A stretch of DNA of 64,000 nucleotides from an uncultured bacterium. GTDB taxonomy: Bacteria; Planctomycetota; SZUA-567; JAKLDR01. How positions within the stretch are numbered: the first letter of the stretch is position 1; each line of letters begins with the position of its first letter. The position numbers and the translations under genes are program-made. Below, piece by piece: positions 4,706 to 15,491 of this stretch. The notes below the pieces were generated by a model that made no database searches, was not told where the DNA came from, and saw only the letters and a program-made list of their open reading frames with translations. The DNA lies in NCBI GenBank assembly GCA_937935355.1, contig CALGYR010000143.1, positions 8,077-72,076 on the forward strand. The letters run 5' to 3'.

Positions 4706-4783
4706 GACCCCATCGTCTAGCCTGGCCTAGGACATAGGCTTTTCAAGCCTAGAACACGGGTTCAAATCCCGTTGGGGTCGCCA
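4706..4783 (+). tRNA. tRNA-Glu (anticodon TTC)
   Basis: Acceptor GACCCCA/TGGGGTC, D-arm GTCTAGCCTGGCCTAGGAC (matches the tRNA-Glu consensus GTCTAG..GG.C.AGGAC). Anticodon arm TAGGC-TTTTCAA-GCCTA, T-arm ACGGG-TTCAAAT-CCCGT, then G+CCA. Confidence 0.85.
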
Positions 4784-4929
4784 CTGTCGTACCGTACATG
4801 GCAGCTGCCGGGACGATTTTGAACCTCAGCAGTTGCCTTTGCTTTCCGTCCGGCCCAAGATCGCTTTTCAGGGTGGCATCCTGGACCAGCTGGGCCAGGG
4901 CTGCCCTCAACTCGGGGGGCGGCGTAGGT

Positions 4930-5110
4930 GGACGCGGCGAGATAGATAAACTTCCTGTGCTACCTGAAGGGCCGAGGGCTCGAAGGCGTGAAGCTGATCA
5001 CCTCGGACAAGTGCCTTGGGCTGTGGAGCATCTGGGCGAGTTCTGCCGGGAAGGTCCAGCCTGCGCCCTTCTCTTCATTCCATGAAGGCAACAGGGGGTG
5101 CGAGCGGATT
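4930..5110 (+). pseudogene. IS256-family (Mutator-like) transposase remnant, frameshifted/truncated
   Basis: One frame reads ...FLCYLKGRGLEGVKLITSDKCLGL... This resembles the conserved IS256 transposase core (...ERGL.GV.LVISD...GL..AI...W.RC.VHF.RN). Only ~50 codons are recognisable and they are broken across frames. Confidence 0.4.
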
Positions 5111-5261
5111 TCAGGTATAGGGCCTTTCTGTTAGATGCGCCTCACAAGCCTCGTGAATAGAGCGGCTTGCGGCGTGACCCCCTGAGCTCGCGCAGGCGGC
5201 GACCCCCGATTAAGGTATAATTAGCGCAACGTATGCGCAACGCGAGTATCTTCTTTCCGCC

Positions 5262-5290
5262 TTGACAGCATGGGTGCGCATTGCTATATT
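5262..5290 (+). promoter_or_regulatory. sigma70-type promoter (TTGACA-17 bp-TATATT) upstream of the island HEAT gene
   Basis: Near-consensus -35 TTGACA at 5262-5267 and -10 TATATT at 5285-5290, separated by a 17-bp spacer, in an AT-rich tract ~70 bp upstream of ATG 5359. Confidence 0.45.
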
Positions 5291-5358
5291 TCGCGCTCGC
5301 CGTTGAGATGACATCTTGATCTTGAGTCAGCGTAGAGCAGAGGGAGGCCGGTCTGCTG

Positions 5359-6255
5359 ATGCAAGAGAGCCCAGCGAAGCGCCCATGGCTGCGTCCCGTG
5401 GTTTACGGGGCGGTGGCCGTCGTGGCAGCCACGTCGATCTACCTGGTCAAGCACCCGCCATTCCACGCCGAGCTTCCTCCGAAGAAGGAAGTCCCCTACA
5501 CGCCTCCGCCGACCAAGGCTCCGAAGCTCTCCGGCTTCGTGAACCGCGAGGAGGCCTATGAGAAGCGGGTGACGCCTGATATGGACACGAGGCTCCCCGA
5601 GGTCAAGGAGACCCAGGACGTCTCGGCGGTGATCCAAGTGCTGATGGACACCAAGGACAAGGACGCCACCCGGAACGAGGCGGCCAACCTCCTCCGTCGC
5701 TCGGGCAGCAAGGATCTTAGCGGCCGACTCATCCGGATACTCTGGAACCCGCAGGAGGGTGAACGTTTCCGGGGGTTCTGCGTTCAACACCTCTCGCTGA
5801 ACCTCCCCCAGGCGGGGGAAACAGAGAAGGCGGAGATCATCGCCACACTGCATAAATGCCTGGCTGACAAGCACTTATCCGTGCGCCGGGAGGCACTCCT
5901 GGCGCTCTCCTATGCCAATGACGCCGAAGCCCCGAAGGTGGCCGTGAAGTGGCTCTCTGCCTCCGAGGGCGAGGGTGCCCGCGACTTGGCCATCCGTTGT
6001 GTGGAGATCCTCGGGCTCAAGGACCAGATCCCCGAGATCCGGAAGTTCCTCAACTCTTCATCTGAACCCGAGCGCAAGCAGGCGATAGTGGTGCTCAGCC
6101 AGTGGGGCGACGAGGCCAGCCGTCCGGCCATCGAGGAGGCGGCCAAGTCCAAGTCGGTCCAGCTGCAGACCGCCGCCCAGATGGCGCTCAAGCGGCTGGA
6201 TGAGGCGAAGGCTGCCCCGGAGCGGGTCAAGGTTGACAGCGAATCGAAACCGTAA
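5359..6255 (+). CDS. HEAT/PBS-lyase-repeat protein with N-terminal transmembrane anchor
   Basis: TM segment WLRPVVYGAVAVVAATSIYLV. Repeated helical HEAT-like units follow (...LSVRREALLALSYANDAEA..., ...RKQAIVVLSQWGDEAS...). Confidence 0.7.
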   Translation: MQESPAKRPWLRPVVYGAVAVVAATSIYLVKHPPFHAELPPKKEVPYTPPPTKAPKLSGFVNREEAYEKRVTPDMDTRLPEVKETQDVSAVIQVLMDTKDKDATRNEAANLLRRSGSKDLSGRLIRILWNPQEGERFRGFCVQHLSLNLPQAGETEKAEIIATLHKCLADKHLSVRREALLALSYANDAEAPKVAVKWLSASEGEGARDLAIRCVEILGLKDQIPEIRKFLNSSSEPERKQAIVVLSQWGDEASRPAIEEAAKSKSVQLQTAAQMALKRLDEAKAAPERVKVDSESKP

Positions 6256-13960: not shown

Positions 13961-13973
13961 AGGAGATGCTTTC

Positions 13974-14432
13974 ATGAGCAATCCTTGGCTTGAGGTGCAT
14001 GTTGATTCGGCGGCGACAATTCCTGCTATTGAGCGGTTATTGGAAGTCAGTCTTGAGAAAGCTGAACTTCGGGAAGCGCCTCCTGGAGAATATGTCCCCG
14101 GAAGAATGGGAGGTATTCAAGTGTCCTACAAGGGGAGGATTCCCTACTATGGTGAATATGACCGCGACTGGAAGTTCCGGGTTATCTTGGACAATGCAGG
14201 TAAATGGGATGAGATAAGACTGGTCTTGGCCATGAAACTCTGCCAATGGCTCTTGGGAGAGTTTCCTGGCTACTACCTAGGTCGCTTAGACACAGGTGCC
14301 GTTTTGTTCTATGGTAATCAGGAAGAAATGAGTATTGACGACAGAGCTAGGGCTTTGTGTGAAGCAAGTCGGGCCTTCGATTCGTATCCTTTCGAGGGAC
14401 GCCGCCAGTTCCGGCCTCTACGGCCAGTATGA
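13974..14432 (+). CDS. putative cognate immunity protein of the polymorphic toxin
   Basis: 152-aa ORF starting 14 nt after the toxin stop, with an AGGAG RBS. Position and size fit toxin-immunity pairs. It has no recognisable motif, so the call rests on context. Confidence 0.55.
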   Translation: MSNPWLEVHVDSAATIPAIERLLEVSLEKAELREAPPGEYVPGRMGGIQVSYKGRIPYYGEYDRDWKFRVILDNAGKWDEIRLVLAMKLCQWLLGEFPGYYLGRLDTGAVLFYGNQEEMSIDDRARALCEASRAFDSYPFEGRRQFRPLRPV

Positions 14433-14538
14433 TTTGCGAACTGGCCGACCCGAAGCGCCCCCTTTTGTTCGCAAGGGGCGGGGGGCAGGCGAAAGTGCAA
14501 ACAGCGCCTTCTTGCACCAGTTGTCTTCATGGACATAA

Positions 14539-15366
14539 TTGGCCGTTAATGGAGGAGTCTTTGAGCAAGTGATGATGCGAATGGCCATGCTGTTCTTGCT
14601 TCCATGTGCGATAGTAGTGTGCTGTTGTGGGTGTAAGACCACTACTCAACCCGCACCGGCAACTGAGGAGCGATTTCCCGACATTCATAAGCTGAAAGAA
14701 TGGCTAAGGGTTGTGGTGTCTCGCGAAGCCACAACTGATGATGTGCAGAAGCAGGTAATAGCCGCTATAAGAGCTGACCCTAGCAGGAGCATCCTTGTCT
14801 TGTGCCCAATGCTAGGAGACGAAGCTGAAGGTGCGAGCGTTCGGATGGGAGCAGCCTGGGCCTTGGGGATGTTGGGCGACAAGCGAGCTGTAATAGCGCT
14901 TGTGGATGCTCTTCGATATACGCCGGCTGGCATTCCTCTCGCAGCCAGTGAAGCATTGGGCAAGATCGACGACCCAGAGGTGTTAACTAGGCTTGTGAAG
15001 ATCTACCGTGGGCACGACAGAGCTCTATCTGCCAATGCAGGAGTGGCGCTAGCCAGCCTGCATCAGAAGGCTTTCGTGCCACAGCTTATCGCATTTCTCA
15101 AGCATGAGGATGTCGATATGCGAGCCATTGCCGCGCGAGCTTTGGGAAGCATAGAAAGCAAGGATGCGGTAGCAGCACTCATTGAGGCATTAGATGACCA
15201 GAACGAAGGGGTCGTAATGTTTGCGGCTCAGGCGCTGGGGAAGATTGGAGACCCAGCAGCACTTGTCCCCTTGAACATAGTCGCACAAGAAGCCAAAGAC
15301 GCTTTTGTTAAGAAGTATGCGCAAGACGCAATCGAACAGATTAACCGACTCAAGGAGAGCGTGTAG
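14539..15366 (+). CDS. HEAT-repeat lipoprotein
   Basis: Lipobox-like ...LLPCAIVVCCCGC. Three or more PBS-lyase/HEAT units (AAWALGMLGDKRAVIALVDAL; AARALGSIESKDAVAALIEALDD; AAQALGKIGDPAALVPL). The true start may be GTG 14569 or ATG 14572. Confidence 0.7.
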   Translation: MAVNGGVFEQVMMRMAMLFLLPCAIVVCCCGCKTTTQPAPATEERFPDIHKLKEWLRVVVSREATTDDVQKQVIAAIRADPSRSILVLCPMLGDEAEGASVRMGAAWALGMLGDKRAVIALVDALRYTPAGIPLAASEALGKIDDPEVLTRLVKIYRGHDRALSANAGVALASLHQKAFVPQLIAFLKHEDVDMRAIAARALGSIESKDAVAALIEALDDQNEGVVMFAAQALGKIGDPAALVPLNIVAQEAKDAFVKKYAQDAIEQINRLKESV

Positions 15367-15475
15367 CAAGAAACTGTCGTCGACTGACTACGCCGGCCAG
15401 TTGACCCTCCGCGGTTCTAACGCGTTTGTGCCCTCCGGCACGGTCAGCTGCACTTCTACGGTACGGAGGACAAGG

Positions 15476-15491
15476 CCCGTTGGGGTCGCCA
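15476..15491. repeat. att-like direct repeat, duplicate of the tRNA-Glu 3' end (CCCGTTGGGGTCGCCA)
   Basis: Exact 16/16 match to 4768-4783. Coincides with the return to high GC. Confidence 0.6.

Follow-up and report, generated by a model that had tools for sequence, protein, structure and literature searches.

Genomic islands at tRNA genes, as known from Islander and TIGER (PMC7192596), have an intact tRNA gene at one end and a displaced, directly repeated fragment of its 3' end at the other; an integrase gene lies beside the tRNA, base composition is foreign, relatives carry the empty site, and the cargo serves competition or defense. All of these features are shared by the locus described here, which occupies 10,692 bp (positions 4784-15475) of a 64,000-nucleotide stretch of contig CALGYR010000143.1 (hereafter, the window) from an uncultured bacterium with a high-GC, planctomycete-like genome. 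Islander and TIGER islands nearly always encode a tyrosine integrase, whereas at this site both the integrase remnant and all intact relatives are large serine recombinases (LSRs), and the integrase gene has been cut to 46 codons. Because that integrase is no longer functional, the locus is a decayed member of the tRNA-integrated islands. We consider it probable that the interval is an immobilized, decayed integrative island of the LSR type, inserted at tRNA-Glu and carrying a toxin locus as cargo.

In the TIGER survey, tRNA or tmRNA genes were the targets of 44.5% of tyrosine integrases and of 14 of 297 serine integrases (given also as 4.9%), and use of a tRNA gene by a serine integrase was stated in 2020 to be previously unreported (PMC7192596). 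A serine recombinase with a predicted tRNA-Met site is also on record for the Paracoccus phage vB_PamS_Pami6 (PMC6536676). Our locus has in common with these elements an LSR with a tRNA target, but it is a decayed element that targets tRNA-Glu(UUC) in a high-GC, planctomycete-like host, with a toxin locus, not a phage, as its cargo. The kind of island is ordinary; its less common feature is a serine integrase at a tRNA gene.

SCCmec offers a parallel at a protein-coding gene: its large serine recombinases, CcrAB, place a cargo island at the 3' end of a conserved housekeeping gene, with direct repeats of about 15 bp, and the target is kept active. It is unlike the island here in its target (rlmH, also called orfX), its two recombinase genes, its host range, and its cargo. 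As for that cargo, polymorphic toxin systems, including those with PT-HINT domains, were reportedly classified by Zhang et al. in 2012. The island gene resembles PT-HINT systems (PF07591) in encoding a large exported protein with a conserved N-terminal part and a PT-HINT domain before a variable, putatively toxic C terminus, with a small gene downstream, and in that its C-terminal part has apparently been replaced by recombination. It differs in its N-terminal module of 1,277 amino acids (aa), which has no match in Pfam or NCBIfam, in its upstream HEAT-repeat partner, and in a toxin tip nearly without relatives; it has no Rhs/YD, filamentous hemagglutinin, or type VI markers.

The tRNA-Glu site, occupied and empty

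The final 16 nucleotides (nt) of the intact tRNA-Glu gene, CCCGTTGGGGTCGCCA, cover the T stem and the acceptor stem on their 3' strands, along with the discriminator base and the encoded CCA. The initial annotation had noted an exact duplicate of this 3' end at 15476-15491 and had read it as an att-like repeat coinciding with a return to high GC. We confirmed both observations. The 16-mer occurs exactly twice in the window, each time on the plus strand, and a search tolerating two mismatches adds no further copy; among 100 shuffles of the window that preserve dinucleotides, none contained two or more matches. Similarity between the two copies reaches beyond the exact 16-mer to 19 of 21 nt. GC content between the repeats is 58.4%, compared to 70.9% in the left flank and 68.7% in the right. 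In bins, it is 0.66-0.76 left of the tRNAs, 0.60-0.67 at 4.8-10 kb, 0.49-0.57 at 10-15.5 kb, and again 0.68-0.76 from the bin that starts at 15501. A direct repeat of the att type delimits the locus as an island at tRNA-Glu: an intact tRNA stands at one boundary, its displaced 3' fragment is directly repeated at the other, and the composition in between is foreign.

We located the site in relatives by a protein search with ThuA, encoded just upstream of the tRNAs: two short metagenome contigs proved to encode P0113, which is 99% identical to it. An empty tRNA-Glu site, for which a comparison with related genomes had been suggested at the outset, was found on contig L088, which joins both flanks through a single 16-mer. 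Positions 680-3028 of L088 align to window positions 2497-4783 at 93.6% identity, and positions 3013-3969 align to 15476-16463 at 90.3%; the two alignments overlap by 16 nt, the lone copy of the repeat, and no DNA from between the repeats is present. The sequence found right of 15476-15491 in the window directly follows the tRNA in L088, as does its small helix-turn-helix gene. Because the L088 breakpoints fall at the single 16-mer, the island boundaries are exact to the base. The L088 flanks differ from those of the window by 4-10%.

A third state of the site is seen on contig L089, whose flank is 96.8% identical to the window up to position 4783 and is followed by other sequence: a different, intact LSR gene on the opposite strand, cut by the contig end, whose product has Resolvase, Recombinase, and Zn_ribbon domains. 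Since this site is occupied by another LSR element, the tRNA-Glu site has been used repeatedly. One attB is found empty (L088), with an intact LSR element (L089), and with a decayed LSR element (the window). The island itself is also present in a second assembly, in which contig L091 is 100% identical to window positions 4000-14275. We considered the final 46 nt of L091 (12630-12675, AGATCGGAAGAGCACACGTCTGAACTCCAGTCAC) as a variant and rejected them as Illumina adapter sequence, an assembly artifact.

The tRNA-Lys/tRNA-Glu pair is shared with relatives L088, L089, and L083, and an exact search found an identical tRNA-Glu sequence in metagenome contigs L081 and L082. The two tRNA genes are in tandem in the window, L083, L088, and L089, and on opposite strands in L087 (1755-2045), the contig that encodes recombinase P0002 (see below). 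Just right of the island, 32 nt (15539-15570, ATTTGAACCCAAGTCTATGCAGACCGGAATGC) are missing from the empty-site contig; this segment loosely resembles DNA encoding an RLRFKI motif near the ends of LSR genes, and may be the scar of an older occupant or a mere indel. We considered a second recombinase remnant there, but the protein-level score is mostly due to the repeat itself.

The recombinase remnant and the reconstructed attachment site

The initial annotation described the island as carrying no recombinase. This holds for intact genes: we found none between the repeats, and no trace of a tyrosine integrase. It does not hold for the short stretch at 4797-4934, where the minus strand encodes the last ~46 codons of an LSR gene, reading toward the tRNA. 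This remnant is 57% identical to residues 484-525 of P0001, a recombinase of 541 aa (E = 3e-6; tblastn with composition correction off). The match misses E = 1e-3 at default BLAST settings; therefore, we divided the six-frame translation of the window into 3,192 chunks and scored the last 75 residues of P0001 against each by Smith-Waterman alignment. The remnant scored 98 and the next independent chunks 54-60, with a mean of 24 and a standard deviation of 5. Independently, the tail of P0002, which is 62% identical to P0001 and also adjoins a tRNA-Glu, scored best at the same window position.

The P0001 gene lies directly after tRNA-Glu on the opposite strand in L081/L082, and its open reading frame (ORF) ends inside the tRNA T loop. 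P0001 carries Resolvase, Recombinase, and Zn_ribbon_recom domains, and P0002 likewise has LSR domains. In position, strand, and distance from the tRNA, the remnant agrees with the intact LSR genes in L081/L083, L087, and L089. The window contains no further LSR similarity and no gene with a Resolvase, Recombinase, or zinc-ribbon domain. Since the remnant lies directly against attL, the class of the lost integrase can be named: it was most likely a large serine recombinase, judging by these similarities, and not the tyrosine type usual at tRNA sites.

A second relic lies next to the remnant. The initial annotation had reported an IS256 transposase scar beside the tRNA and had taken it as a hint of decay. 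The fragment exists, but it amounts to ~28 internal codons with sub-threshold scores. Its residues (NFLCYLKGRGLEGVKLITSDKCLGL...) match positions 213-240 of 379 in the Mutator/IS256 profile (Pfam Transposase_mut, E = 0.002) and the IS256 family in NCBIfam (E = 0.016); each is the sole match there and falls below the curated cutoff. We found no IS256 ORF, terminal inverted repeats, or second copy in the window, and the piece is at most a scar and not a functional insertion sequence. The suggestion of decay is supported by the integrase gene, cut as it is to 46 codons. In the simplest history, an IS256-type element would have entered the recombinase gene, and later deletions would have removed most of both. 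The element cannot excise by itself; because both att junctions are intact, its excision by a related LSR supplied in trans seems possible.

Joining the island ends through the core gives a reconstructed attP, ...CGGTCAGCTGCACTTCTACGGTACG-GAGGACAAGG-CCCGTTGGGGTCGCCA-CTGT-CGTACCGTACATGGCAGCTGCCG..., whose P and P' arms form an inverted repeat of 23-25 nt. When 40-nt segments were drawn at random from the window in pairs, 0.1-0.4% of the pairs attained its gapped score of 26. A 30-nt spacer separates the arms, and its middle lies between T5 and T6 of the core, with CCCGT on one side and TGGGG on the other. Because the P' arm lies within the recombinase tail, the inverted repeat ties the far end of the island to its LSR-bearing end. 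The arrangement fits a serine-integrase attP, in which the central TT would be the crossover.

A viral contig, L126 (IMGVR_UViG_3300035684_000006), has an LSR gene (6289-8067; Resolvase and Recombinase domains) whose 3' end holds the 16-mer in antisense as part of 23 nt that mimic a tRNA-Glu 3' end; a tRNA gene is lacking there. The core is read there as GDPNGI, the same frame as in P0001 and P0002. This looks like an unintegrated attP embedded in its integrase gene. L126 was the only informative one among 30 exact matches to CCCGTTGGGGTCGCCA in 2.9 million viral contigs, most of which lie outside tRNA genes; the reconstructed attP junction had no match (0) in viral contigs.

Close contact between LSR and tRNA genes extends beyond these contigs. 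Among the 112 database relatives of P0001 (P0001-P0112), 28 end in peptides such as VAGVGFEPTTFRL, GAGIEPATL, and WIRTRDL. Peptides with GFEPTT, GIEPAT, or IRTRDL are antisense translations of tRNA T arms, and in the protein bodies of the relatives, 54,661 residues in all, the terminal patterns have a single match. Inspection of the DNA showed LSR genes that read into tRNA-Phe (P0009, L127 10001-11682) and tRNA-Met (P0024, L128 10001-11707); in all, direct contact with a tRNA gene was seen in the DNA for five LSR genes. On viral contigs (L129-L208), 18 of 80 relatives have an antisense tRNA ≤450 nt from the end of the LSR gene: 16 tRNA-Met, which makes this the commonest tRNA neighbor there (unlike the tRNA-Glu of our locus), one tRNA-Phe, and one tRNA-Gly. 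The T-arm peptides, the DNA inspection, and the viral neighbors together place the window remnant in an LSR family that commonly abuts tRNA genes. By the usual account, tRNA genes are not targets of serine integrases. A further step, which is possible but doubtful, would be to see here a broad LSR lineage dedicated to tRNA 3' ends (Glu, Met, Phe, and Gly), with attP inside the 3' coding end of the integrase gene itself. In such a lineage, integration would swap the last residues of the enzyme for ones encoded by the antisense strand of the tRNA.

Cargo genes and neighboring features

The claim that the island carries a toxin system is supported by a PT-HINT polymorphic toxin gene, one of four cargo genes, all on the plus strand (Table 1). 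The longest toxin ORF starts at 6302 (2,552 aa), and domain residue numbers are counted from there. Its product is identical to P0233 and has a weak PKD match at residues 1499-1582 (Pfam PKD_4, 25.2 bits versus a cutoff of 27). The C-terminal domain weakly resembles the CdiA C-terminal nuclease domain, with both matches below threshold (Pfam CdiA_C, E = 0.0045, 17.6 bits versus a cutoff of 26.6; PDB 4g6v, E = 0.44, over the same stretch), and a single relative reached E = 4e-4 among 1.84 billion representative proteins. We rejected assignment to a CDI system (CdiA/CdiB), since Pfam searches of the 2,552-aa protein and its neighbors gave no TPS domain, hemagglutinin repeats, or CdiB. The start of the 152-aa ORF downstream of the toxin is called identically in L091, and its product, the candidate immunity protein, has no family match. 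Beyond the type of repeat, there is no detectable kinship between HEAT1 and HEAT2.

The toxin gene has a mosaic structure: its product shares 70-72% identity with P0234 and P0235 over residues 1-1277, and beyond these the C-terminal halves are unrelated. At the nucleotide level, homology to the loci of these relatives (L092-L096) spans 5376-10102 and includes HEAT1. GC content at third codon positions (GC3) in the toxin gene falls from 0.87 to ~0.6 near nt 9850; in finer steps, it is 0.84-0.92 up to codon ~1150, ~0.65 from codon ~1180 (nt ~9850), and 0.46-0.6 past codon 1600; it is ~0.5 in the 152-aa ORF and HEAT2 (0.52 in the latter) versus ~0.9 in host genes. The drop in GC3 and the end of homology argue that a lower-GC donor supplied, by recombination, the C-terminal half of the toxin along with the genes that follow. 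Recombination within a conserved delivery module is the usual route of polymorphic toxin diversification.

No family in Pfam or NCBIfam matches the N-terminal module of 1,277 aa, which is in every case accompanied by a HEAT protein encoded upstream; in L092-L096, a HEAT_2 gene precedes the homologous giant gene. In these relatives the pair sits elsewhere, with no tRNA nearby, beside a CBASS-type defense cluster. In L092/L093 (1-9922, the P0234 locus), this cluster encodes a SMODS cyclase, a SAVED-HNH effector, an SMC-like ATPase, and NYN and Exo_endo_phos nucleases.

Table 1. Positions of the island, its attachment sites, its genes, and bordering host genes in the window
Feature	Position	Strand	Description	Basis
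ThuA gene	3451-4230	+	Real gene upstream of the tRNAs	GC3 0.94
tRNA-Lys(UUU)	4523-4599	+	Host gene just 5' of the target tRNA	ARAGORN; Rfam tRNA, 75.4 bits
tRNA-Glu(UUC)	4706-4783	+	Intact; integration target	ARAGORN; Rfam, 60.2 bits
attL	4768-4783	+	Copy of the 16-bp direct repeat CCCGTTGGGGTCGCCA	Exact match; L088 switches from left to right flank here
P' arm of reconstructed attP	4788-4810		Inverted relative to 15441-15465; inside the LSR remnant	
LSR gene remnant	4797-4934	-	Last ~46 codons, reading toward the tRNA	tblastn; Smith-Waterman
IS256-family transposase fragment	4946-5032	+	~28 codons from mid-protein; no ends, no ORF	Pfam/NCBIfam, sub-threshold
HEAT1	5359-6255	+	HEAT-repeat protein, 298 aa, N-terminal membrane anchor	Pfam HEAT_2, E = 5e-13
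Giant secreted polymorphic toxin	6332-13960	+	2,542 aa from MRKWSS; signal peptide	PT-HINT, Hint_2, PKD_4
Mosaic junction in toxin gene	9850-10102	+		GC3 drop; homology to relatives ends
PT-HINT pre-toxin domain	12902-13351	+	Residues 2201-2350	PF07591, E = 3.8e-18, 66.5 bits versus cutoff of 27.7
C-terminal putative toxin domain	13352-13957	+	~201 aa; near-orphan	Weak CdiA-CT nuclease resemblance
152-aa ORF	13974-14432	+	Candidate immunity protein; no signal peptide	Starts 14 nt past the toxin stop
HEAT2	14539-15366	+	HEAT-repeat protein, ~260 aa, lipoprotein-like N terminus MLFLLPCAIVVCCCGC	HEAT_2, E = 3.6e-29; HEAT_PBS, E = 4.8e-19
P arm of reconstructed attP	15441-15465		Inverted relative to 4788-4810	
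attR	15476-15491	+	Copy of the 16-bp direct repeat CCCGTTGGGGTCGCCA; displaced original tRNA-Glu 3' end	Exact match
Helix-turn-helix gene	15670-15912	+	80 aa; first host gene right of the island, not part of it	Pfam HTH_38, E = 3e-4; L088 3170-3412

Several features of the window lie outside the island. The longest ORF upstream of the tRNAs (3094-4428, minus strand, 444 aa) was rejected as a gene: it is the antisense shadow of ThuA, with a GC content of 0.84 at first codon positions and a GC3 of 0.67. Conservation of ThuA also preserves the shadow frame, which explains its tblastn matches of up to 67% identity; a contig search with the shadow ORF returned 80 loci, none with tRNAs or synteny. 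Exact look-ups of two window ORFs gave no match; one of the two, 15584-16066, is not a real gene. Intergenic tandem arrays with 8-nt units occur at 16078-16174, 17145-17219, 17398-17497, 23027-23083, and 31350-31415; the GTCCCCGN type accounts for four of them, on either strand, and the remaining array (AGGCACTT) directly follows a tRNA-Arg. L088 likewise holds an array with an 8-nt unit, and the window has arrays with 7-nt units at 28535-28581 and 61307-61507. An AAA_14/DUF4143 ATPase gene (19099-20415, plus strand), 3.5 kb right of the island, lies at a local dip in GC (0.60 at 19001-19500) and might be a small acquired segment. Farther right, ARAGORN called tRNA-Thr (30521-30592) and tRNA-Leu(GAG) (30589-30672), which overlap by 4 nt, and tRNA-Cys (31186-31259); at the Rfam gathering threshold only the Thr and Arg genes of this cluster are confirmed, and the Leu and Cys calls may be unreliable.

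Possible histories of the island and their meaning

The history that we favor begins with an element whose attP carried a 16-bp copy (19 of 21 nt overall) of the tRNA 3' end and would have recombined with attB at the 3' end of tRNA-Glu(UUC). On integration, the left junction would have regained a complete tRNA, and the original 3' end, now displaced, would have become the direct repeat of the right junction. The LSR gene would then have directly adjoined attL and pointed toward the tRNA, its 3' coding end near the att core or containing it, before its destruction left the last ~46 codons followed by the short internal piece of an IS256-family transposase. The cargo would have consisted of a HEAT protein and a giant, Sec-exported surface protein, the C-terminal half of which was presumably replaced by lower-GC DNA. 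This replacement would encode the PKD domain, a PT-HINT self-cleaving pre-toxin domain, and a novel C-terminal toxin, followed by the candidate immunity gene and the HEAT2 lipoprotein.

Several points weigh against this history. The link between the LSR and this particular insertion is circumstantial because the window holds no intact recombinase. The remnant is short and rich in Ala and Pro, and under the default composition correction of BLAST it misses E = 1e-3. The inverted repeat of the reconstructed attP reaches a significance of only about 0.1-0.4%, and the TT center did not stand out in an ungapped dyad scan. No displaced tRNA 3' repeat was found within 10-11.6 kb in the relatives with intact LSR genes (L083, L127, L128, and the 18 viral loci). 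In L083, exact k-mers, mismatched copies, an inverted-repeat partner of P', and similarity to the B' arm were sought over 11.6 kb and gave nothing convincing; in L127, L128, and the 18 viral LSR-tRNA loci, there was no repeat of ≥11 nt within ≤10 kb. Intact LSR elements may be longer than the stretches searched, and the comparison includes no complete LSR element with both att sites. As for the cargo, the toxin C-terminal domain has no significant family match, and AlphaFold2 predictions made without an alignment failed (predicted local distance difference test score of 36 for the toxin tip and 42 for the 152-aa ORF); toxin and immunity are putative functions assigned from the order of the domains.

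Tyrosine integrases dominate tRNA sites, repeats of ≥16 bp are typical of their elements, and none of the intact LSR relatives has such a repeat in the stretches searched. A tyrosine integrase, since lost, might accordingly have made the island and its repeat, and the LSR tail might stem from a later, second element that was mostly deleted along with a middle copy of the repeat. This scenario keeps some probability because no complete two-junction LSR element is available for comparison, but we regard it as very unlikely: there are only two copies of the repeat and no trace of a tyrosine integrase, and the far end of the island has an inverted copy of sequence from the LSR tail, as expected from one attP. 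It also leaves aside the same 16-mer inside the LSR gene of L126, where there is no tRNA, and the five LSR genes that directly abut tRNA genes. Still less can be said for the second 16-mer being a chance match or a dispersed repeat to which the low-GC stretch is unrelated. The repeat is short, and its 30 exact matches among viral contigs lie mostly outside tRNA genes, but no shuffled window reproduced it, it coincides to the base with the L088 breakpoints and with the step in GC, and the empty site refutes coincidence; we consider this next to impossible.

The direction of change is a separate matter. The island may be ancestral, and the L088 lineage may have lost it by excision or by deletion between the repeats, instead of its having been gained recently in the window lineage. 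GC3 in the left part of the island (0.82-0.9) is close to that of host genes, the recombinase has had time to decay, and from two genomes with flanks this divergent the direction of change is unreadable. Against great age, the GC3 of the right half points to a recent foreign origin of that part at least, and we think an ancestral island rather unlikely. In any case, it is no true alternative to an integrative island, since precise loss at the repeat is predicted by an att site.

Read as a decayed LSR-type integrative island, the locus exemplifies in textbook fashion how a cargo island decays where it has integrated. Here, a giant polymorphic toxin locus reached one strain of an uncultured high-GC lineage and then became fixed; the C-terminal domain of the toxin and its 1,277-aa N-terminal module are both uncharacterized. 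If the exchange of C-terminal residues upon integration is true, conserved, and functionally relevant, the free and integrated states of such elements could yield different forms of the enzyme. A lineage dedicated to tRNA 3' ends, if true, would be a set of serine integrases with conserved tRNA genes as natural landing sites. Serine integrases are the preferred tools for inserting large DNA, and those with a conserved tRNA 3' end as their natural attB would give ready-made landing sites in many organisms.

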